In this document: one piece after another, positions 2,740 to 35,084 of the stretch
How the letters are laid out: every line of letters starts with the position of its first letter
Numbering within the stretch: the stretch's first letter is position 1
Virus record (IMG/VR): IMGVR_UViG_3300021431_000039
Reading direction: 5' to 3' (one strand)
Source of the DNA: a virus
Length of the DNA stretch: 40,906 nt
The notes under the pieces: generated by a model
Seen by the model: only the letters and a program-made list of their open reading frames with translations
What the model was told of the DNA's origin: nothing
Database searches by the model: none
Program-made: the position numbers and the translations under genes

Positions 2740-2766
2740 AATTGATTGGATTGGAAAGGAAACAGC

Positions 2767-4650
2767 ATGGTTTTCAAAGGCTATGCGACAGGCACAGGAA
2801 AGAAAGCAACCATGAAGGTCAAGGATGCACAGCTTCTTTCATGGGATGATGTTCAAGGGAATCAGTCATTTGGTGCAATTCTGAATCATGATTTTGTTGA
2901 TATTTCATTTGATACTGATGAACTGTCACAGAAGTTTTGGGATATGGCAGAAGAGAATAACTGGAATTGTTTGATTCTTGAAAATCCTGAAAATGGACAC
3001 ATTCACAGTTATTGGAAGGACACAGAACACAGGATTGAAAAGGGTGGAAAGGATAAAAAACTAGCAGTTGGATTGATTGCAGATATTCATTCAGGATCAA
3101 CATACATACCATTAAGAGTCAATGGTGTTGATAGATTTCCACCATCTTTTGAACCTGATGACATTGATGAAGTTCCTGATGAATTGATTCCTGTGAATAC
3201 AACCATCAATCTTGCAGACTTGCAAGAAGGGGATGGAAGGAATGATGAATTGTTCAAATACATCCTGATTCTTCAGTCACAGCTTATGTTGGACAGAGAA
3301 CCAATAAAAAGGGTGTTAGATAATATCAATCACTTTATCTTTCAGGATGCGTTATCAGAAGAAGAAATGGATGTCATCACAAGGGATGATGCATTTGCAA
3401 AACCAATCTTCTATAAAGGAAAAATGTTCTTGCACAATGCTTTTGGTCAATACATGAAAAATGAATATCACATCAAAAGAATTCAGGGACAGCTTCATGT
3501 GTATGATGGTGGGATTTATAAATCAGGTTACAGGTTTATTGAATCCAAGATGGTTGAATTGATTCCAACACTGAAAGCAAATCATAGGGTGGAAACCCTA
3601 AAGTATTTGGAAATCATCACACCTGAAGAAACACAGGTTGCAGATGCAAATCTGATTGCATTCAGGAATGGTCTTTATGACTTAGCAACAGATGAACTTC
3701 TTCCATTCAGTCCTGATCATGTTATTACAAACATGATTCCTTGGGACTATAACCCTGAAGCGTACAGTGAATTGTGTGATAAGACCTTGAACAAAATATC
3801 CTGTCAGGATGATGAAATCAGGGCATTGCTTGAAGAATGTATTGGATATTGCTTCTTTAGACAAAATGAATTATCCAAGTCATTTTTCCTGACAGGTTCA
3901 GGAAGTAATGGTAAATCAACATTTTTGGATATGGTGAAGAATGTACTTGGAAGACAAAACTATGTGTCATTGGATATGGATGAACTTGGTGAACGATTCA
4001 GTACAACAACCATGTTTGAAAAACTTGCAAATATTGGTGATGATATCAGTGATGAATTCCTTCAAGGAAAAACACTTGCACAGTTCAAGAAGATTGTCAG
4101 TGGAAATGATATCAAGGCAGAAAATAAAGGTCAGGATGCATATTTCTTCAAACCAACAGTCAAGCTGTTATTCAGTGCAAATGAAATTCCAAGAATGAGA
4201 AACAAAGGATTTGAAGCGATCAAAAGAAGACTTGTCATCATTCCATTCAATGCTAAATTTAACAAGAATGATGATGACTTTGATGCAGGGATCACTTGGA
4301 AGCTGAAAAAACAGGATGTTGCAGAATACCTGATAAAACTTGGTATTGAAGGATTGAAAAGAGTTCTGACAAATCAGGGATTCACAGAATCACAGAAGGT
4401 AAAGGATGAAGTTGACAACTTTGAAAAAGACAACAATCCAATTCTTCTATTCTTGGAAACAGTGGAAGAAGATGAAATTCTGAACCATGAAACCAAAGAA
4501 GTATTTGCAAGGTATGACACATTCTGTAATGAAAATGGATTCACAAGAATTGCAATGCAGACTTTCACCAAGGAAATCAAAAAACATCTTGGATGTGACA
4601 GGAAGGATGTCAGACTGAATGGCAGAAAGGCAATAATTTTTATTAAGTAG
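2767..4650 (+). CDS. Primase-helicase (N-terminal prim-pol-like domain plus D5/P4-type SF3 helicase)
   Basis: Walker A GSGSNGKST, Walker B-like IGDDIS, and typical P4/D5 C-terminal organisation. ATG 2767 follows GGAAAGGAAAC; alternative start TTG 2746. Confidence 0.85.
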   Translation: MVFKGYATGTGKKATMKVKDAQLLSWDDVQGNQSFGAILNHDFVDISFDTDELSQKFWDMAEENNWNCLILENPENGHIHSYWKDTEHRIEKGGKDKKLAVGLIADIHSGSTYIPLRVNGVDRFPPSFEPDDIDEVPDELIPVNTTINLADLQEGDGRNDELFKYILILQSQLMLDREPIKRVLDNINHFIFQDALSEEEMDVITRDDAFAKPIFYKGKMFLHNAFGQYMKNEYHIKRIQGQLHVYDGGIYKSGYRFIESKMVELIPTLKANHRVETLKYLEIITPEETQVADANLIAFRNGLYDLATDELLPFSPDHVITNMIPWDYNPEAYSELCDKTLNKISCQDDEIRALLEECIGYCFFRQNELSKSFFLTGSGSNGKSTFLDMVKNVLGRQNYVSLDMDELGERFSTTTMFEKLANIGDDISDEFLQGKTLAQFKKIVSGNDIKAENKGQDAYFFKPTVKLLFSANEIPRMRNKGFEAIKRRLVIIPFNAKFNKNDDDFDAGITWKLKKQDVAEYLIKLGIEGLKRVLTNQGFTESQKVKDEVDNFEKDNNPILLFLETVEEDEILNHETKEVFARYDTFCNENGFTRIAMQTFTKEIKKHLGCDRKDVRLNGRKAIIFIK

Positions 4651-5145: not shown

Positions 5146-5418
5146 ATGATGGAATTACATGAAGAAACAGATGATCAGTTATCATTTGCAGAAGATGTTG
5201 TCAATCATCCATCCCACTATTGTCAGGATGGTGGAATGGAATGTATTGATGAAATGATAGCAGTCTTTGGAAAAACAGCAACTATACACTTTTGCCTTTT
5301 GAATGTATGGAAGTACAGAAAAAGGGCAGTGTTCAAGAATGGTGCTGAAGATATGAAGAAAGCTGATTGGTACATGAAGAAGTATATGGAACTTAGTAGA
5401 AAGACGGTGAACTACTGA
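5146..5418 (+). CDS. DUF3310-family phage protein
   Basis: NHPSHY motif near the N-terminus, about 90 aa, typical context in phage replication modules. Confidence 0.7.
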   Translation: MMELHEETDDQLSFAEDVVNHPSHYCQDGGMECIDEMIAVFGKTATIHFCLLNVWKYRKRAVFKNGAEDMKKADWYMKKYMELSRKTVNY

Positions 5419-5912
5419 TGAATTATCATAATATTACAAAAGATGATATGAACAATGGTGATGGTTTGCGTGTTGTTCTTTGGGTAGCAGGATGCAGTCA
5501 CCATTGTAAAGGTTGTCAGAACCCTGTGACATGGAATCCTGATGATGGTATTGAATTTGATATCAGAGCAAAGAATGAAATCTTCAAGGAACTGAAAAAA
5601 AAGCACATTGCAGGAATCACATTTAGCGGTGGTGACCCTTTATTTTCAACCAACAAGGGGACAGTTTTCAGTCTGTGTCAGGAAATCAAAAAGATGTTTC
5701 CAACTAAGACCATCTGGATTTATACAGGCTATGATTGGGAAGATATAAAAAACGAACCATTGATGAAATATATTGATATTTTAGTAGATGGAAAATTCAT
5801 TGAAGAATTGAAGGATGTCAATTATCCTTGGGCAGGTTCTATCAATCAAATGGTAATTGATGTTCAGGAATCATTAAAAGAAAAGAAGGTGATTTTACAT
5901 GAAAGTAATTAA
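5418..5912 (+). CDS. nrdG: Anaerobic ribonucleotide reductase activating protein (radical SAM)
   Basis: CSHHCKGCQNP (CxxxCxxC) cluster motif. About 160 aa. Overlaps and precedes nrdD. Confidence 0.9.
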   Translation: MNYHNITKDDMNNGDGLRVVLWVAGCSHHCKGCQNPVTWNPDDGIEFDIRAKNEIFKELKKKHIAGITFSGGDPLFSTNKGTVFSLCQEIKKMFPTKTIWIYTGYDWEDIKNEPLMKYIDILVDGKFIEELKDVNYPWAGSINQMVIDVQESLKEKKVILHESN

Positions 5913-8019
5913 GAAAGATGGAACACTTGAAGACTACAATTTTATAAAGATTAAAAATGCAGTCACAAAATCTGCAAAAAGAGTCATGATTGACCTTGAT
6001 GATGAAGCATTTGACAGACTAAAAGACATTGTTGAATTAAAACTGTCATTGCTGAACACAGAACTGATTCCAATTGCAGACATGCACAATGTTGTGGAAG
6101 AATCATTGGAACAGTTTGATCCAAGAATTGCAAAATCTTATAAAGATTATCGCAACTATAAAAAGGATTTTGTTCATATGATGGACAAGGTATATCAGAA
6201 ATCACAGTCCATCAGATTCATTGGTGATAAAGAGAATGCAAACACTGACAGCACATTGGTAGCAACTAAAAGATGCTTAATATTCAATGAGCTAAATAAA
6301 AGACTGTACAGAAAGTTTTTTATGACACAGGAAGAACTTCAAGCATGTAAGGATGGTTATATCTATGTGCATGACCAATCAGCAAGATTGGACACAATGA
6401 ACTGTTGTCTGTGTGATGTGGCTTCAATTATGTCAGGTGGTTTTGAGATGGGTAACGTTTGGTATAACGAACCCAAAACACTTGATACAGCATTTGATGT
6501 TATGGGTGATATCATCCTTTCAACAGCATCACAACAATATGGTGGATTCACAGTTCCTGAAGTAGACAAGATTCTTGCACCTTATGCTGAAAAGTCATTC
6601 AAGAAATATATTAATGAATATCTGAACATCACTGTAGGTGATCATAAAAATGCAGAATGTTGGGCAAGAAGCAAAGTTAAAAGAGACTTTGAACAGGGGT
6701 TTCAAGGAATAGAAATGAAGCTGAACACAGTTGGTTCAAGCAGAGGTGATTATCCATTTGTCACAATGACGTTTGGTCTTGCAACAGACGAATTTGGAAA
6801 GATGGCATCCATCACATTCCTTGAAGTTCATGCAAAGGGACAGGGCAAGGAAGGAAACAAAAAGCCTGTGTTGTTTCCTAAGTTGGTATTTTTGTATGAT
6901 GAAAATCTGCATGGTGAAGGATGCATCAATGAAGATGTCTTTGAAGCAGGGATTGAATGCAGTTCCAAAACAATGTACCCTGATTGGTTATCACTGACAG
7001 GTGAAGGATATGTTGCTTCCATGTATAAGAAATATGGAAGGGTTGTTTCCCCTATGGGATGTAGGGCATTCTTATCACCTTGGTATGAAAAAGGTGGAAT
7101 GCAACCTGCTGATGAATCAGACAAACCTGTGTTTGTTGGAAGATTCAATATTGGTGCAGTCAGTCTTCATCTTCCAATGATTCTTGCAAAGTCAAGACAG
7201 GAAAATAAAGACTTCTATGAAGTCCTTGATTATTACCTGAATATGATTAGGAAAATCCATCAAAGAACCTATGACTATCTTGGTGAAATGAAAGCATCAA
7301 CCAATCCTATCCAATACTGTGAAGGTGGTTTCTATGGTGGGCATCTGAAACCTTCAGACAAAATCAAACCATTGCTGAAACCAATGACAGCATCTTTTGG
7401 AATTACAGCATTGAATGAACTTCAGGAACTTTACAATGGGAAATCCCTTGTGGAAGATGGACAGTTTGCATTGGATGTTCTGAAGTATATCAATGACAAG
7501 GTGAATGAATTCAAGGAAGAAGATGGTTGGTTGTATGCGATCTATGGAACACCTGCTGAATCACTTTGTGGTCTTCAGATTGAACAGTTCAGAAAAATGT
7601 ATGGTGTGATTGAAAATGTATCTGACAGACCTTATGTTTCAAACAGTTTCCATTGTCATGTGACTGAAAATATTACACCAATTCAGAAGCAGGATTTAGA
7701 AGGTAGATTTTGGGATTTATGCAATGGTGGGAAAATCCAATATGTTAGATATCCAATCAGCTACAACAAAGATGCAATCAGGACATTAGTCAGAAGGGCA
7801 ATGGATAAAGGTTTCTATGAAGGTGTGAACTTGTCACTTGCATATTGTGATGACTGTGGACATCAGGAACTTGAAATGGATGTGTGTCCTGTGTGTGGTT
7901 CAACGAACCTGACAAAGATTGACAGAATGAATGGTTATTTATCATATAGCAGGGTACATGGTGATACAAGATTGAACAGTGCCAAAATGGCAGAAATTAA
8001 AGAAAGGAAATCAATGTAA
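5899..8019 (+). CDS. nrdD: Anaerobic (class III) ribonucleoside-triphosphate reductase
   Basis: N-terminal ATP-cone-like segment, C-terminal zinc ribbon CDDCGH...CPVCGS and glycyl-radical motif RMNGYLS. 706 aa. Confidence 0.9.
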   Translation: MKVIKKDGTLEDYNFIKIKNAVTKSAKRVMIDLDDEAFDRLKDIVELKLSLLNTELIPIADMHNVVEESLEQFDPRIAKSYKDYRNYKKDFVHMMDKVYQKSQSIRFIGDKENANTDSTLVATKRCLIFNELNKRLYRKFFMTQEELQACKDGYIYVHDQSARLDTMNCCLCDVASIMSGGFEMGNVWYNEPKTLDTAFDVMGDIILSTASQQYGGFTVPEVDKILAPYAEKSFKKYINEYLNITVGDHKNAECWARSKVKRDFEQGFQGIEMKLNTVGSSRGDYPFVTMTFGLATDEFGKMASITFLEVHAKGQGKEGNKKPVLFPKLVFLYDENLHGEGCINEDVFEAGIECSSKTMYPDWLSLTGEGYVASMYKKYGRVVSPMGCRAFLSPWYEKGGMQPADESDKPVFVGRFNIGAVSLHLPMILAKSRQENKDFYEVLDYYLNMIRKIHQRTYDYLGEMKASTNPIQYCEGGFYGGHLKPSDKIKPLLKPMTASFGITALNELQELYNGKSLVEDGQFALDVLKYINDKVNEFKEEDGWLYAIYGTPAESLCGLQIEQFRKMYGVIENVSDRPYVSNSFHCHVTENITPIQKQDLEGRFWDLCNGGKIQYVRYPISYNKDAIRTLVRRAMDKGFYEGVNLSLAYCDDCGHQELEMDVCPVCGSTNLTKIDRMNGYLSYSRVHGDTRLNSAKMAEIKERKSM

Positions 8020-8021
8020 TT

Positions 8022-8357
8022 ATGAACGGAAAAGAATATCAGAAATTAGCAATGAGAACATGCAGTATTCCATATGACAACAATAAAGGAAGATTGCATC
8101 ATGCAGTGTTTGGACTTACTTCAGAAGCAGGTGAAGTTGCAGGAATCCTTCAGAAGGTATATCAGGGACATGGATTTGACAAAGATCATATCAAGAAAGA
8201 ACTTGGTGACTGTCTTTGGATGATTGCTGAAGCATGTGAAGCACTTGACCTTGATATGGATGATGTGATGCAGACAAACATTGATAAGCTGAAAGCAAGA
8301 TATCCTGAAGGGTTTAGTGCTGACAGGTCACTTCACAGAAAAGAAGGTGACATTTAA
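8022..8357 (+). CDS. mazG: MazG-like nucleotide pyrophosphohydrolase
   Basis: EAGEVAG...ELGDCLW...DLD pattern of the all-alpha NTP-PPase fold; about 110 aa. Confidence 0.8.
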   Translation: MNGKEYQKLAMRTCSIPYDNNKGRLHHAVFGLTSEAGEVAGILQKVYQGHGFDKDHIKKELGDCLWMIAEACEALDLDMDDVMQTNIDKLKARYPEGFSADRSLHRKEGDI

Positions 8358-8485
8358 TGCTCTTAAAATTAGCATTTATCTTCATTATTTGGGGGATTTA
8401 TGGTGATTTAGAAAAGAAAAGTGATGAAATATCTTTATTTTGTATGATTTTATTAAGTTTTTTAATACTTTTTAGTTAGGAGAAT
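8357..8485 (+). CDS. Possible small membrane protein (42 aa, two hydrophobic segments)
   Basis: Hand translation gives MLLKLAFIFIIWGIYGDLEKKSDEISLFCMILLSFLILFS. The ATG overlaps the mazG stop (TAATG). Absent from the ORF track because it is under 60 aa. Confidence 0.3.
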
Positions 8486-8488
8486 AAC

Positions 8489-9163
8489 ATGTTAAAATGT
8501 GAAATTTTAGATATACAAGGTTTTCAACCTGCTATTCATGGGATGAGAAATCCCATGAATAGTTGGGATAAGTCGGACAGTTTTAATTGTAAAATCTATG
8601 GAGAAGATTGTGATTTATGTAAATACAATTACCTTCAATGTTCCAACTATTATATTGGTGATAATGACCTCAATCTGATGAAACGCTTGTACAAAGCAGG
8701 AACAGAACACAGAAAATATGACAGAATGATTCAGGTATGGATGGATATTGAAGCACCGTTATATTGGTGGAAAGAATTTGACACATACAAGATTGGAACT
8801 GTTGCAAATAGTTGTTCTACCATGCATAGGATCCATGCAAAAGCATTCACACTGGATGACTTTAGCCATGAGCATCTATACACTGACACATTATCTCCAC
8901 ACTGTCCAACGGAGATGTTAAAAGAACAAATTGATGCACTTAACTTCTGGAGATTTAGATACTTAGAGACGAAAGACAAACGAGACTGGTGGCAGATGAT
9001 TCAGCTTCTTCCATCATCATACAATCAGAAACGAACAGTCATGATGAACTATGAAGTGATTGCAAGAATCATTGAACAAAGGTCACATCATAAGTTGGAT
9101 GAATGGCATCAGCTTATTGATGTTCTTAGTGGTCTTCCTTACATGAAGGAATTGATGAAATAA
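8489..9163 (+). CDS. Divergent ThyX-like (flavin-dependent thymidylate synthase fold) protein; canonical RHR-x7-S motif not evident
   Basis: AGGAG RBS. The layout GMRNPMNSW...GTEHRKY...IEAPLYWWKEFDTYKIG...NSCSTMHRI parallels ThyX blocks, but the catalytic Arg/Ser positions appear substituted. Confidence 0.35.
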   Translation: MLKCEILDIQGFQPAIHGMRNPMNSWDKSDSFNCKIYGEDCDLCKYNYLQCSNYYIGDNDLNLMKRLYKAGTEHRKYDRMIQVWMDIEAPLYWWKEFDTYKIGTVANSCSTMHRIHAKAFTLDDFSHEHLYTDTLSPHCPTEMLKEQIDALNFWRFRYLETKDKRDWWQMIQLLPSSYNQKRTVMMNYEVIARIIEQRSHHKLDEWHQLIDVLSGLPYMKELMK

Positions 9164-9460
9164 CTGTTCTTGGTTGTTCTTGGTGCTATGAATTATGACA
9201 CCACCAAGAACAGCACACAGCAGTGGTTGAAGGGTGTGCAAGAACAACAAAGAACACTAGCAAGAACAGTAAAAAACCTTTATTTATAAGGGTTTCAAGA
9301 CTTTTGTTCTTGGTGTTCTTGGTGTTCTTGGTACTTTTCATTTTTAAATAAAAATAGTAATTTTATCAATATTTACTATGTATTTATGTGATTTTAGGTG
9401 AAAAAAAATAAATAAATATATATATATAGTAGTGTTTTAGCAAGAACACCAAGAACACAA
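9164..9460. repeat. Iteron locus 1: GTTCTTGGT 9-mers (fwd 9166, 9176, 9306, 9315, 9324; rev ACCAAGAAC 9203, 9448; degenerate rev 9239, 9249, 9261, 9440) around an AT-rich spacer of about 107 bp
   Basis: Direct reading. Three perfect tandem forward copies at 9306-9332 face reverse copies at 9440-9456 across 9333-9439. Confidence 0.9.
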
Positions 9461-9481
9461 AAGGCAGGCGGTGATGAAAAA

Positions 9482-9844
9482 TTGATTCTTGATGATATCA
9501 GAGAATTGAAGCAGGACATTGATGAATTGCAGATGAAAATTGATTCATTTGGAACAGTTGGTGCAATCAGATATGACAAAGAATGTGTTCAGACAAGTTC
9601 ATCAGGTGATTCATTTGAAAAGTCGGTCATCAGGTTGATCCAAGATAAGGAAAACCTTGAACACATGAAGAAAGCACATAAATTAATGTGTGCAAATGTC
9701 AACCTTTCTTATTATACAGACAGACAGAGGGAATTCATCAATTTGTATTATTTCCAAGCATATTCAATCAGGCAGTGCAGTCATATCATGAATATTAAAA
9801 AATCTGCACTGTGTAGAGTAAAACGCAGAATAAATTCAGCATAA
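9482..9844 (+). CDS. Late-gene transcriptional regulator, sigma-70 region-4-like HTH (DUF1492/RinA/ArpU-like)
   Basis: TTG start 7 nt after GGCGGTGA. The C-terminal TDRQREFINLYYFQAYSIRQCSHIMNIKKSALCRVKRR resembles region-4 HTH regulators. Sits immediately upstream of terS. Confidence 0.6.
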   Translation: MILDDIRELKQDIDELQMKIDSFGTVGAIRYDKECVQTSSSGDSFEKSVIRLIQDKENLEHMKKAHKLMCANVNLSYYTDRQREFINLYYFQAYSIRQCSHIMNIKKSALCRVKRRINSA

Positions 9845-9877
9845 ACTATTGTGTGTAAACTGAATTTATGCTATTAT

Positions 9878-9898
9878 TATATAGTAGAATACTATATA
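9878..9898. promoter_or_regulatory. Perfect 21-bp palindrome TATATAGTA-gaa-TACTATATA upstream of terS; carries the TATATAGTAG motif
   Basis: Direct reading. The same 10-mer occurs at 9423-9432 (+) and 33640-33649 (-). Confidence 0.5.
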
Positions 9899-9913
9899 AA
9901 AAAGAGACAAATG

Positions 9914-9950
9914 AAAGACACCAGCATGAAAAGGGCAGGTGTCTTTTTGC
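9914..9950 (+). terminator. Terminator-like hairpin between the late regulator and terS
   Basis: Stem AAGACACC / GGTGTCTT with a 15-nt loop followed by TTTT. The loop is large. Confidence 0.4.
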
Positions 9951-9993
9951 GTTAGCAAATAACAAAGAAAGGAAGGGGGTGTCAGGACATGGG

Positions 9994-32046: not shown

Positions 32047-32133
32047 AACACAGGAAGAGTCAAGAAAAAAACATCAAGAAGATGGTATTAGGATGATTCT
32101 GCTGTTCAAGCAGAAGTAAACAGACTTTTGCAT

Positions 32134-32335
32134 TAGTAACATGATAGTAACAAAAGAGTTACAAACACATCAGAAAGCCTTATAATATAAGGAACACAGT
32201 TATTTTGGAATTATCTAAACGTTAATTTATTGCTGAGGAGAGCAATAAGAAACCCAAGGAAATTCAACATTCCTTGGGTCTTTTCTTTTTGTCAAAATCT
32301 AAGAATTTGTGTCTAATAGTAACATGCTAGTAACA
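32134..32335. promoter_or_regulatory. Candidate attP region with 19-bp direct repeats TAGTAACATG(A/C)TAGTAACA at 32134-32152 and 32317-32335
   Basis: Non-coding 364-bp gap between the endolysin and the integrase 3' end. The repeats, with one mismatch, are spaced 183 bp apart like integrase arm sites. Confidence 0.35.
32252..32290 (+). terminator. Rho-independent terminator of the late/lysis transcript
   Basis: ACCCAAGGAA-8 nt-TTCCTTGGGT followed by CTTTTCTTTTT. Confidence 0.8.
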
Positions 32336-32372
32336 CACTAGAAACAAGAAAATAAATATATTCTAAAATAAA

Positions 32373-32410: not shown

Positions 32411-33463
32411 TTATATCTTATTTATAGCTTCAAGTTTGAATGGTAATTCAATATGTGTATAAACTGTTTGTGTGACACCTTGTCCCTTATGACCAACAAT
32501 CTTCTTGATGATTCTTTCATCAACACCTGCTTCAGTAAGCAATGACACACAGGTGTGTCTTGTATCATGTGGGCGGTGCTGAAGTTTTAATTCTTCCATC
32601 AGTGGTGTCCAATAACTGTCATAGTAGTTTCTATAACGAAAATGCTTATCATCAGGTGTGCAAATCAGATATTCACAATTCCTATCTAACCAATATTGGA
32701 AGAATGGAACAATCTTTTCAGCAATTGGAACTTCTCTTATTCCTGATTTTGTCTTTGATTCCCTTACATAGAACCATCTTTCATCAAGATGCACATCTTC
32801 CTTTTTTAGATCTAGTAATTCACTAATTCTAACACCTGTATAAATCAGCATTAGGATAACAGAATAATAAATATTAGAATCCTTTACATTCCAAACCATA
32901 TCAATCTGTTTCTTGCTAAATGGTTTTCTATTGTATGCATTTGGGTTTCCTGCCTTGGTGATATCAACATATCTGACCATATCCCTTTTATCAGCAGTCA
33001 CAATTTCATGCATCACTGCATAGTCATACATCAGCCCAAACAGGATTTTCATCTTCTTCAGTGTTGGTGTGTTCTTTCCTGATTCATCAACTGCCTGTTG
33101 CAGGTGGTCAAGTTTGATTTCCACAAACTTCATGTTGTGCAATTTCTCACAGGCTCTGAATGACGCTTTATATCCTTTCACATTGGAATCAGACACCTTT
33201 GGAAAATGCACTTCAGACCACTTTTCAAATACTTCAGCAAAGGTGATTGTGTTGTGGTGTAAGTCATAAGGGTCTTTGTTGTATTCTGCAAGGGCGGTCA
33301 ATGCTTCCTTTCTACTTTTATAATATCCAACAAAAGCATAGATTGGATAAGACTTCTGTTTTTCTTCATCAAATGTCCATCCTGTTGTCTTCCTTGCAAC
33401 CCAAGGTTTTCTTCTGTTTCCTGATAACTTATAAACACTTCCAAAACCATTTGGTAAACGCAT
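32411..33463 (-). CDS. int: Tyrosine integrase
   Basis: TGVRISELLDL (Arg), HDTRHTCVS (HxxR), GHKG...TQTVYTH (His, Tyr). The ATG giving MRLPNGFG lies 11 nt after GAAAGGA; the track start is 33475. Confidence 0.9.
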   Translation of the reverse strand: MRLPNGFGSVYKLSGNRRKPWVARKTTGWTFDEEKQKSYPIYAFVGYYKSRKEALTALAEYNKDPYDLHHNTITFAEVFEKWSEVHFPKVSDSNVKGYKASFRACEKLHNMKFVEIKLDHLQQAVDESGKNTPTLKKMKILFGLMYDYAVMHEIVTADKRDMVRYVDITKAGNPNAYNRKPFSKKQIDMVWNVKDSNIYYSVILMLIYTGVRISELLDLKKEDVHLDERWFYVRESKTKSGIREVPIAEKIVPFFQYWLDRNCEYLICTPDDKHFRYRNYYDSYWTPLMEELKLQHRPHDTRHTCVSLLTEAGVDERIIKKIVGHKGQGVTQTVYTHIELPFKLEAINKI

Positions 33464-33560
33464 AAATAAACACATCCTTTCGTAAAATTGGGTGACTTTA
33501 ACAAAGGGTTGTGTTATACTTATTTTGGTTAAATTTGTGTGTATAGCACAATCCTTTGAT

Positions 33561-33598
33561 AAGACCTAACTACTCCAATAGTTGGGTCTTATTTTTTT
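33561..33598 (+). terminator. Hairpin plus T-run (plus-strand orientation) upstream of int
   Basis: AAGACCTAAC-10 nt-GTTGGGTCTT then ATTTTTTT. Its 5' arm shares AAGACCTAA with the hairpin at 32373. Confidence 0.45.
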
Positions 33599-33743
33599 GT
33601 TCTTGGTGTTCTCCTGTTCTTGGTGTTCTTGGTTGTATACTACTATATATATTTATATTTTTTTTTATTTCTTTAGTGTTTCATCTTTATTTTCTTAAAA
33701 GTATTATAGATAAAACACCAAGAACACCAAGAACACCTAGAAC
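33599..33743. repeat. Iteron locus 2: GTTCTTGGT at 33599, 33616, 33625 (degenerate 33608); 83-bp AT-rich spacer; ACCAAGAAC at 33717, 33726 (degenerate 33735)
   Basis: Direct reading. The spacer, read on the minus strand, is homologous to the locus 1 spacer (A8...ATATATATAGTAG). Confidence 0.9.
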
Positions 33744-34150
33744 AGCACGGACTTGATTTCCTTGTAAATATCATAAATCCATCCGATTCCAAAAAGTCCC
33801 AATGTCAAGGTGTAAAGAATCCCTAAACCAATTTGACCTGATGCATATCTTTGGACACCTAACCATCCAAGAAATATTGTTGCAATCATCATTCCTTTAC
33901 TTGTCTTTAGATTCTTCTTTTCTTTTGGTGGAACATAAATAGCTTCTGAAGGTGTTTTATTTGAAGATGACTGTGTATTGACAAAACTGACACCTTTGAT
34001 TGGTGTACGCATAGTTGTTGTCTTTCTTCCTTTTGAATTCACAGTGATTCTTCCTGCTTTACTTCCAACAGACATTCCAACGGAATTCTTATTGAAATTC
34101 AGATTCACACCTTTCCCCAATTTGATTGTCTTCCTGAATCGCATTGACAT
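33737..34150 (-). CDS. Membrane protein with N-terminal DUF4236 and C-terminal TM2 domain
   Basis: MSMRFRKTIKLGKGVNLNFNKNSVGMSVG (DUF4236 pattern). FLGWLGVQRYASGQIGLGILYTLTLGLFGIGWIYD (TM2). ATG 34150 follows AAGGGA and lies 16 nt after the repressor stop. Confidence 0.75.
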   Translation of the reverse strand: MSMRFRKTIKLGKGVNLNFNKNSVGMSVGSKAGRITVNSKGRKTTTMRTPIKGVSFVNTQSSSNKTPSEAIYVPPKEKKNLKTSKGMMIATIFLGWLGVQRYASGQIGLGILYTLTLGLFGIGWIYDIYKEIKSVLF

Positions 34151-34166
34151 ATTATCACATCCCTTC

Positions 34167-34832
34167 TTAGAATTTCTGTCTGTTTTCAATGACTCTTCCA
34201 ATAATTTGAACAGGCTTTTCAATGATGTCTTTGTTGGAAAAATACATTGGTGCATATGTAGGATTAAAAGACTGAAGAACTATACCACCATCCTGTTTCA
34301 ATAGCTTCTTCACACATGCACTATCATCATTTACTTGTGCAATAACAATATCACCTGATTCTGCATCAGACTGTTGTTTGACAATCAGAACATCACCTGC
34401 TTGCATTCTTGGTGACATGGAATCACCTTTGACCTGAAGACCAAAGAATTCACCTGTCTGTGCAAGCCTGAATGGTATTTCTTCCCAATCCAATACTTCT
34501 TCAATAGCTTCAATTGGGACTTCTGCAACTACCTGATCAAGAACAGGAATCCTGCATCCTTTTTCAATCCTTATTGATTCATCTGATAATGCTTCTGAAT
34601 TATACTGTGCATCCCACATTGCTTCTTGTACAGATTTATATTCTGATTCACCTGTCAGATAACTGATTGAAACACCAAAGTAATTTGCAAGTTTGGTCAT
34701 AGTTGCATTATTTGGTGTGAATGTCTTCCATTTAGATGAAGACCCTGCACCAAGACCTGCTTCCCTTTCTAACTGTCTTTTGGATATCTTTCTTTCCTTA
34801 CATAATTGATTGATTCTGTCTATAAATTCCAT
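34167..34832 (-). CDS. CI/LexA-like repressor (XRE HTH plus S24 peptidase domain)
   Basis: N-terminal HTH ISKRQLEREAGLGAGSSSKW. C-terminal GDSMSP (Ser) and VKKL (Lys) autoproteolysis motifs. Confidence 0.9.
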   Translation of the reverse strand: MEFIDRINQLCKERKISKRQLEREAGLGAGSSSKWKTFTPNNATMTKLANYFGVSISYLTGESEYKSVQEAMWDAQYNSEALSDESIRIEKGCRIPVLDQVVAEVPIEAIEEVLDWEEIPFRLAQTGEFFGLQVKGDSMSPRMQAGDVLIVKQQSDAESGDIVIAQVNDDSACVKKLLKQDGGIVLQSFNPTYAPMYFSNKDIIEKPVQIIGRVIENRQKF

Positions 34833-34880
34833 GGCAATTCTCCTTTCTTAAAACATGCTGAAGAAATTCAGCGAAAAGCG

Positions 34881-34909
34881 TTGACAAACTGCTGAAGAAC
34901 TGCTAATAT
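34881..34909 (+). promoter_or_regulatory. Sigma-70-type promoter, rightward (early operon)
   Basis: TTGACA, a 17-nt spacer, then TAATAT. Confidence 0.65.
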
Positions 34910-34996
34910 ACATAGTGTCAGGTGCAGAACTAATTCAGCAGACTGATATAAACAAAAGTCGCTTGATGTTTTAAATATATGTTGGTGGTACTTCAT

Positions 34997-35025
34997 ATGG
35001 TAGAACATCTTCAGCAATTTGTCAA
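34997..35025 (-). promoter_or_regulatory. Candidate leftward promoter (toward the repressor)
   Basis: On the minus strand: TTGACA, a 17-nt spacer, then TACCAT. The -35 plus spacer (TTGACAAATTGCTGAAGA) nearly duplicates the rightward promoter (TTGACAAACTGCTGAAGA). Confidence 0.4.
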
Positions 35026-35084
35026 TATTTTATGCTGAATTTTTACGCACCTGCTGAATAAATTATATAAGAAGGTAGGTGAAA

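Follow-up and report, generated by a model that had tools for sequence, protein, structure and literature searches.

The iteron elements and their genomic setting

The DNA analysed here (IMG/VR virus record IMGVR_UViG_3300021431_000039; 40,906 nucleotides, hereafter the window) carries two copies of a repeat-bearing element, E1 (9164–9460) and E2 (33599–33743), whose probable role in DNA replication is the subject of this study. PHROG and Pfam scans indicated that the window is the circularly permuted, 41-kb genome of a temperate siphovirus with a GC content of ~35%. Its early genes encode an SNF2 helicase, a protein combining PD-(D/E)XK and AAA_24 domains, a DUF669 protein and a family-A DNA polymerase (913–2739), followed by a D5/P4-type primase-helicase of 634 amino acids (2746–4650, plus strand). 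Between the primase gene and E1 lies a nucleotide-metabolism cassette (5146–9163), which comprises DUF3310, the anaerobic ribonucleotide reductase proteins NrdG and NrdD, MazG and the 224-residue p224 (8489–9163). Directly 3' of E1 is a late regulator resembling sigma-70 region 4 (9482–9844, plus strand, with a TTG start codon at 9482), and then come TerS, TerL and the structural and lysis genes. The lysogeny module contains the tyrosine integrase gene int (32411–33475, minus strand) directly downstream of E2, a DUF4236/TM2 open reading frame (ORF), an S24-type CI and Cro.

Both elements are built from the 9-mer GTTCTTGGT, which occurs in 14 exact copies in the window, 12 of them in the two clusters E1 and E2; a random 9-mer would be expected in ~0.3 exact copies. 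With at most one mismatch allowed, 36 matches were found in the window vs. 11.8 ± 3.3 in shuffled sequences, and none of 100 shuffles reached 36. Exact forward copies in E1 start at 9166, 9176, 9306, 9315 and 9324, and exact reverse copies at 9203 and 9448. Reverse copies with one mismatch start at 9247, 9259 and 9439, and one with two mismatches starts at ~9237.

The core module of E1 consists of three perfectly tandem forward iterons as its left arm (9306–9332, plus strand), an AT-rich core (9333–9438) and two reverse iterons, one exact and one with a single mismatch, as its right arm (9439–9456, minus strand). The core, presumed to be the DNA-unwinding region, is 106 nt long, has a GC content of 13–15% vs. 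~35% for the window, and ends in A8-TAAATAAATATATATATATAGTAG. It carries a conserved box, ATATATATAGTAG (TATATAGTAG at 9423–9432), at a fixed distance of 6–10 nt from the right iterons, the last of which ends at 9456, 25 nt ahead of the late-regulator start codon. Upstream of the core module, a distal set of two forward GTTCTTGGT iterons with 10-bp spacing (9166–9184, plus strand) begins 3 nt after the p224 stop codon. It is faced across 18 nt by an exact reverse iteron (9203–9211, minus strand; inverted-repeat pairs I7 and I15) and followed by three degenerate reverse iterons (tGCAAGAAC, ACAAAGAAC and AGCAAGAAC; 9237–9267, minus strand), which have counterparts in the type A and type B relatives described below. 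A short A/T-rich linker with weak hairpin potential (AAAAACCTTTATTTATAAGGGTTT; 9270–9300) separates the distal iterons from the triple array and has a similar form in relatives.

E2 aligns with E1 in inverted orientation: the two elements are similar in their triple arrays, in their inverted iterons and in the right-hand portion of the spacer, where the box ATATATATAGTAGT lies. Since the alignment is in opposite orientation, both elements face their downstream gene alike, the late regulator on the plus strand and int on the minus strand. The int-proximal iterons at 33599, 33616 and 33625 (33599–33633, plus strand) form the right arm in the element's own minus-strand orientation. The AT-rich core of E2 measures 83 nt (33634–33716), with the box TATATAGTAG at 33640–33649 on the minus strand, and its triple tandem array (33717–33743, minus strand; two exact iterons and one with a single mismatch) overlaps the stop codon of the ORF at 33737–34255. 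The layout of Staphylococcus aureus pathogenicity island (SaPI) origins, with at least two opposed iterons on each side of an AT-rich region, was found in both elements (3 + 2 iterons in E1 and 3 + 3 in E2).

These results agree with a first-pass annotation of the window, made from the letters alone. A pattern search of the sequence recovered every 9-mer repeat listed there, including the forward triplet at 9306–9332 and the reverse and degenerate copies; the AT-rich spacer, given as ~107 bp, and the second homologous copy were likewise found. The proposed position at the early/late boundary was confirmed by the gene annotation, with the nucleotide-metabolism cassette and p224 upstream of E1 and the sigma-region-4-like regulator, TerS and TerL downstream.

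Between E2 and the int start, the plus strand contains a strong terminator-like hairpin with a T-run (33558–33598), antisense to int, which is preceded by promoter-like hexamers at 33492–33526 on the same strand. A short antisense or divergent transcript is possible in view of these two signals.

The module is conserved at two genome positions

An IMG/VR scan for two tandem 9-mers returned 68 loci, of which ~35 were true relatives by tblastn. Conservation of the array in related phages, which the first-pass annotation had named as a check, was borne out: the module occupies the same two genome positions in ~35 related viral contigs, even where the flanking proteins are only 50–75% identical and the GC content is 41–46%. 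Among the ~35 distinct modules compared, nearly all have the triple forward array, and the iterons are exact or nearly so. The spacer drifts in length from 62 to 119 nt and has diverged in sequence, and the TATA-like box stays 6–10 nt from the reverse iterons. Exact or near-exact iterons beside a drifting spacer show that the 9-mers themselves are under selection.

Beyond these contigs, Megablast searches with E1 and E2 found no match among GenBank phages, where the window has no close relative, and the nearest cultured primases, those of Paenibacillus phages Wanderer and LincolnB, are only 41% identical. A literature search with the 9-mer string returned primer hits only. A scan of genome contigs with the 18-mer gave mostly chance matches in high-GC genomes; among the matches listed, two loci (L137 and L148) were informative, and arrays occurred in prophage contexts only and were not scattered in host genomes. 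Prophage remnants are present in metagenome-assembled genomes (MAGs) labelled uncultured Clostridium and uncultured Blautia. In the Blautia MAG (L148, 3650–5040), the iteron module of a mosaic prophage remnant lies directly upstream of terS, a third genomic context, and adjoins a 262-residue protein in which sigma-70 regions 3 and 4 are joined to an Xre-type helix-turn-helix (HTH).

The distance between the module and the primase gene differs among lineages. Three relatives carrying type D or E iterons (L411, L413 and L414) have the module immediately behind the stop codon of the primase gene. So does the cultured Paenibacillus phage Wanderer, where a 257-bp gap behind this gene contains four GTAACAGA repeats, an AT-rich core and inverted copies. 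In type C phages the module lies ~1.3 kb downstream of the primase gene; in types A and B the nucleotide-metabolism cassette intervenes and the distance is 4.5 kb. From the adjacency in L411, L413, L414 and Wanderer, the lineage of the window seems to have gained genes between primase gene and origin; as the cassette at 5146–9163 is shorter or absent in relatives, it looks like the insertion that moved the origin away. By these sequence comparisons, the simplest history would be that the origin began beside the primase gene, that inserted genes moved it away, and that a duplicate later arose in the lysogeny module, ahead of the split into types A, B and C.

The iterons switch in concert

Five iteron types were distinguished: A (GTTCTTGGT, the type of the window), B (GTCTTTCGT), C (GTTCAAGGT), D (GGACAAGG) and E (TTACAGAA). 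In sister lineages, all 9-mers have been switched in concert, in both elements of one genome. Type B was found through an integrase search, in contig 072910 (L202), where the module upstream of int has GTCTTTCGT-type repeats on both arms; an exact search with the type B triple array showed that an E1 locus (L365) comes from the same contig. In L325, L294 and L365, type B replaces every site of E1, and the distal set is present there with the switched sequence. Type C was found through a primase search, at both elements in L401 and L410, and a primase-based search also gave types D and E (L411, L413 and L414). One sequence that occupies about ten sites in two loci and changes at all of them together points to a diffusible, phage-encoded reader.

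The type C elements (L401, 12900–13500; L410, 10050–10600) have GTTCAAGGT and GTTCTTGGT mixed, with 11-bp rather than 9-bp spacing, and hold extra hairpin-like units downstream of the core, composed of one forward and several reverse sites. The mixture of variants suggests relaxed recognition of the central dinucleotide.

The C-terminal wing of the primase-helicase follows the iteron type

The primase-helicase was proposed as the initiator on the basis of its Pfam domains, PDB homology, an AlphaFold2 model and co-variation with the iterons. Its Pfam domains are D5_N (residues 269–352), DUF5906, a superfamily 3 (SF3) ATPase (382–486) and Pox_D5 (561–615). A phmmer search matched it to PDB entry 7OLA, the SaPI5 protein PriRep5, with E = 8e-37. 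The C-terminal part aligns with PriRep5 residues 637–746, and the last 35 aligned residues correspond to 712–746, inside the C-terminal domain (CTD, 676–790); within this part, the segment VFARYDTFCNENGFTRIAMQTFTKEIKKHL aligns with PriRep5 717–746. The CTD of PriRep5 holds the winged helix that is credited with origin recognition (PMC9371898), and deleting it changes the binding of origin DNA in an electrophoretic mobility shift assay (PMC9371898, Fig. 3E legend).

An AlphaFold2 model of the C-terminus was calculated from 14 sequences, with a mean predicted local distance difference test score of 76 and scores of 86–91 over the last 60 residues. It comprises helices at 83–97 and 104–115 and a beta hairpin with strands at 118–124 and 127–133 (model numbering). 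The helices and the wing of the predicted winged helix map to residues 583–634 (nt 4492–4647) of the protein. The beta hairpin in the model suggested that the tail that tracks the iteron type, residues 616–634 (nt 4591–4647), is the wing. Taken together, the Pfam domains, the 7OLA match, the CTD alignment and the model predict an SF3 helicase initiator with a C-terminal winged helix.

Every type A primase has the C-terminal sequence CDRKD(V/I)R..GKK.I(I/V)F. The type B tail ends in CDRKQMREDGGIRVTRF and the type C tail in CKI(I/V)DKK..GRKCRIF, and the tails of types D and E are quite different. Compared with the primase of the window, type A primases are 67–81% identical in the body (residues 1–582) and 63–79% in the wing. 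The corresponding values are 79% and 37% for type B, 73–75% and 37–42% for type C, and 56–70% and 16–26% for types D and E, in which the whole winged helix has been replaced, recognition helices included. Judged from these identities, the wing is decoupled from the rest of the protein.

Co-variation was further assessed with a sliding scan of 11 proteins (complete sequences only; 2,923 windows of 20 residues) for segments that are conserved within type A and changed in both B and C. The highest score, 7.49, was obtained for the last 20 residues of the primase, and no segment of any other protein exceeded 4.81. Moreover, the five iteron types match five wing classes, with few independent switches (one lineage for B, two related contigs for C and three for D/E). 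Three protein look-ups, intended to test the wing-to-iteron code out of sample, returned contigs that were too short or stand-alone winged-helix proteins, and no informative arrays.

Stand-alone Pox_D5 winged-helix proteins of 107 residues, with a type C-like wing, are encoded in other phages (L415–L417) beside a Dam methylase and correspond to the presumed origin-binding domain, lacking the helicase.

Other candidate readers and sites

Several other phage proteins were considered as readers of the 9-mer and rejected. The CI–cro intergenic region (34850–35070) contains about six copies of the palindromic operator TGCTGAA-N3-TTCAGCA, which is unlike the 9-mer, in two groups that together form a 47-nt inverted repeat; the 9-mer is not found in this switch region. 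CI has its own operators there and an HTH that is nearly identical in types A and B, and Cro, with different operators as well, does not track the repeat type. Nor does the HTH of p68, an HTH_17, excisionase-like protein. The proteins p73, ORF172, p158, p224, p146 and p90 are each missing from some array-bearing phages. Of these, p224 had no Pfam or PDB match, found no support as a DNA-binding protein and is absent from type C phages; its family is very large and unnamed, and one source labels a homologue ThyX-like.

The late regulator, whose gene product the first-pass annotation had suggested as a footprinting partner, is probably the wrong protein for this purpose, the candidate being the primase-helicase. 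Among type A phages, the recognition helices of the late regulators are unrelated, and two of these phages (L002 and L038) have a helix nearly matching that of type B. A target site of a RinA-, ArpU- or Alt-like late activator would be expected to follow the recognition helix, and the site sequence does not. On this sequence evidence, the link to the late regulator is one of position only, and the regulator would be a neighbour of E1 and not its binder.

Three other roles were also rejected. A packaging (pac) site recognised by TerS is contradicted by phages in which TerS has been exchanged for a type only 31–33% identical with the arrays unchanged. A phage attachment site (attP) at E2 is excluded by two observations: an integrated prophage remnant with host genes on its flanks, on a MAG contig (L137), retains E2 intact, with an int remnant on one side and a CI-like gene on the other, and the homology breakpoint common to L043, L051 and L137 (~32239) lies on the other side of int from E2. 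A 51-residue minus-strand ORF that spans the triple array (9341 to 9186; MKSTKNTKNTKN...) is absent or frame-shifted in most relatives. This ORF (MKSTKNTKNTKNKSLETLINKGFLLFLLVFFVVLA..., with TKN repeats) arises from in-frame iterons and resembles a small membrane peptide.

Around the breakpoint, four TAGTAACA-like repeats lie between the lysin gene and the 3' end of int (32130–32340). From its sequence, this region is likely to be attP with arm-type sites.

A probable replication origin and its alternatives

From the computed element layout, the two fixed positions, the PriRep5 homology, the wing co-variation and the primase-adjacent module in diverged relatives, we consider it probable that E1 is a replication origin of the SaPI/P4 kind, that E2 is a second copy of it, and that the iterons of both are read by the winged helix of the primase-helicase. 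An origin was the leading function put forward in the first-pass annotation, and it is the one favoured by a PriRep/P4-alpha-type primase-helicase with a C-terminal winged helix, a SaPI-like layout, a conserved array and co-variation of the wing across five types.

By analogy with SaPI Rep proteins, self-loading SF3 helicase hexamers would assemble on the two oppositely oriented iteron sets, each recognised by the C-terminal winged helix of the phage's own primase-helicase. The hexamers would then melt the core of 13–15% GC between these sets, and the N-terminal primase would prime DNA synthesis at the melted core. Binding of the primase to the iterons, core melting and initiation at E1 and E2 are all deduced from this analogy. 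E2 may serve as a second firing origin, as a cis partner like crr of P4, or as a control or titration site.

Several points weigh against this assignment. E1 is not adjacent to the primase gene in the window but begins 4.5 kb past its stop codon, and E2 lies in the lysogeny module, so that neither copy directly follows the initiator gene. Two origins in a genome of 41 kb would also be atypical. The GC skew follows the direction of transcription, with no inflection at E1. The winged-helix DNA binders that headed the Foldseek matches to the model (RFX, Orc1/Cdc6 on origin DNA, Fur and RTP) were not significant, the best having E = 0.07. The co-variation depends on few independent switches, mosaic co-inheritance could inflate the association between wing and iteron, and p146, p90, p224 and the late regulator, which are missing or too diverged in type B or C, lay outside the sliding scan. 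Each copy is directly upstream of a gene start and has a conserved TATA-like box, which fits a regulated promoter too. Finally, the assignment is computational.

In E1 the right-hand iterons separate the TATA-like box from the late-regulator start, and in E2 from the int start; as a conjecture, initiator occupancy may also influence how the two genes are expressed. Moreover, the two inverted copies bracket the early/replication region at promoter-like positions, and the origin might in this way time the expression of the late regulator and int. We regard such a replication-coupled developmental switch, in which origin occupancy or firing sets the timing of both genes and the copies possibly also form an obligatory pair like ori and crr, with initiator hexamers looping the DNA between them, as speculative and rather unlikely.

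A regulated promoter cassette as the main function is unlikely. Here the spacer would be the promoter of the late regulator or int, and the 9-mers would be operators of a dedicated looping transcription factor that switches both genes together, through a loop joining the triple array upstream to sites at about +1 to +20. Both copies do point toward a gene start, and the box ATATATA(G)TAGTA is fixed 6–10 nt from the downstream sites, whereas its distance to the upstream array varies. In two relatives (L017 and L258), the int start codon follows the iterons almost directly (~10–25 nt); in the Blautia MAG locus, the same module is directly upstream of terS, and TATATAGTAG recurs in the window at 9878, upstream of terS. 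However, none of the candidate regulators (CI, Cro, p68 and the late regulator) tracks the repeat type. The late-regulator recognition helix is common to type B and some type A phages yet differs among type A phages, and p73, ORF172 and p158 are absent from some phages that bear the array. In addition, no recognisable −35 element is present, a consensus scan found no forward promoter, and read-through from the co-directional operon upstream could serve both genes. The primase-adjacent module in diverged relatives would also be left unexplained. As a second function of an origin element, a promoter or operator cassette is possible.

A structured RNA or single-stranded DNA (ssDNA) is very improbable as the main function. 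According to this explanation, the arrays pair as a long-stem hairpin that might, for instance, act as an attenuator, be an RNase III target or give a priming signal on ssDNA, and the type switches preserve complementarity. The arms of inverted repeat I1 (24 nt each, 9310–9333 and 9438–9461) are 92% complementary, an ssDNA fold of 9296–9466 has a z-score of −4.8 against shuffles, and the forward and reverse arrays always change together. Pairing, however, needs only pairwise compensation, whereas one 9-mer at about ten sites in two loci indicates a shared reader, and inverted binding sites produce such a fold signal automatically. Furthermore, some relatives have only one good reverse copy, with a possible stem of ~11 bp (L001), the loop would be 62–119 nt long and variable in sequence, and an Rfam search matched no family. 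The first-pass annotation had listed a regulated promoter, a looping site and a hairpin beside the origin; no evidence was found for any of them as the primary function, and each may be a secondary property.

That the elements are instead arm-type sites of attP, a TerS pac site, a partition centromere, a miniature inverted-repeat transposable element (MITE) or a repeat-made small gene is hardly credible, since the proximity of E2 to int and of E1 to terS (~500 bp), the two inverted copies of ~150 bp resembling MITE ends and the minus-strand ORF are outweighed by the evidence on attP, TerS and the ORF given above, by a 91% identical int without arrays upstream (L199), by the lack of any ParA/ParB-type annotation among the 20 proteins of the early region and lysogeny module scanned against PHROGs, and by the lack of scattered copies in host genomes among the matches listed.

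Relationship to known replication systems

SaPI origins contain 6–12 short iterons immediately downstream of rep around an AT-rich centre, with at least two iterons in opposite orientation on each side; Rep recognises them through its C-terminal winged helix, and two Rep hexamers are proposed to load, one per side (PMC9371898). The system proposed here resembles that of SaPI5 in having an SF3 helicase initiator that is fused to a primase and has a predicted C-terminal winged helix. It likewise has two opposed iteron sets around an AT-rich centre and, judged by co-variation, putatively cognate types of iteron and initiator, and in types D/E and phage Wanderer the putative origin is immediately 3' of the initiator gene. 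In contrast to SaPIs, the window represents a complete temperate siphovirus, not a satellite, and encodes a family-A DNA polymerase of its own. Its 9-mers stand in perfect head-to-tail tandem, unlike the 5–6-mers of SaPIs. Its presumed origin and its primase gene are 4.5 kb apart, and the module has a second, inverted copy, each of the two abutting the 5' end of a developmental gene.

The alpha protein of satellite phage P4 combines primase, helicase and a C-terminal winged-helix origin-binding domain in one polypeptide. The primase-helicase of the window shares with it the Pox_D5/D5_N family signature in Pfam. In P4, short iterons (TGTTCACC) occur in both orientations at ori and crr, which lie several kb apart, are both bound by the initiator and are both needed in cis for replication. 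This recalls the two iteron-bearing elements in the lineage of the window, which switch together with the primase wing. The P4 host, in contrast, is Gram-negative, and no close sequence relationship was detectable. Iterons, spacer and box are all homologous between E1 and E2, unlike ori and crr, which are not known to be copies of a single module.

Lambda-type origins, with iterons for the O protein, and origins of lactococcal and streptococcal phages also have iterons beside an AT-rich region, a phage-encoded initiator and cognate specificity. Those origins differ in that they usually lie inside the initiator gene and have direct repeats on one side only, and their initiator, not itself a helicase, must recruit one. 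In iteron plasmids (such as P1 incA and F incC), an auxiliary iteron cluster binds the same initiator and controls replication by titration or handcuffing. A second iteron cluster away from the origin is a shared feature, and titration or handcuffing is one possible role of E2. However, the plasmid initiators are of the RepA type (WH1–WH2) and depend on host DnaA and DnaB, and E2, unlike the plasmid auxiliary clusters, has a complete origin architecture, AT-rich core included.

To our knowledge, the origins of temperate siphoviruses of gut Firmicutes that encode PolA and a D5/P4-type primase-helicase are essentially unmapped. If correct, the assignment would give a widespread uncultured phage lineage a concrete origin, extend the self-loading-helicase paradigm of SaPIs from satellites to complete phages, and name the beta-hairpin wing as the likely specificity determinant, with five natural wing/iteron pairs. 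Cognate origin and initiator types would define incompatibility or cross-activation groups among co-resident prophages and satellites. It is unusual for an origin module to be duplicated ahead of int and the late regulator; if functional, the duplication raises the question of coupling among replication, excision and late transcription. With respect to the systems compared, four features are new: iterons of 9 bp in tandem, a module displaced from the initiator gene, its inverted duplication before int and the late regulator, and the natural wing/iteron types.

A palindrome and hairpin upstream of terS

A palindrome, TATATAGTAgaaTACTATATA, and behind it a GC hairpin that has a T-run (AGACACC...GGTGTCTTTTT) lie at 9870–9955, between the late regulator and the true terS start (~9990). 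They may represent the late promoter, or a site for the regulator, together with an attenuator; a connection with packaging is also conceivable. The GC hairpin is kept in nearly all relatives, and the sequence of the palindrome varies by lineage.

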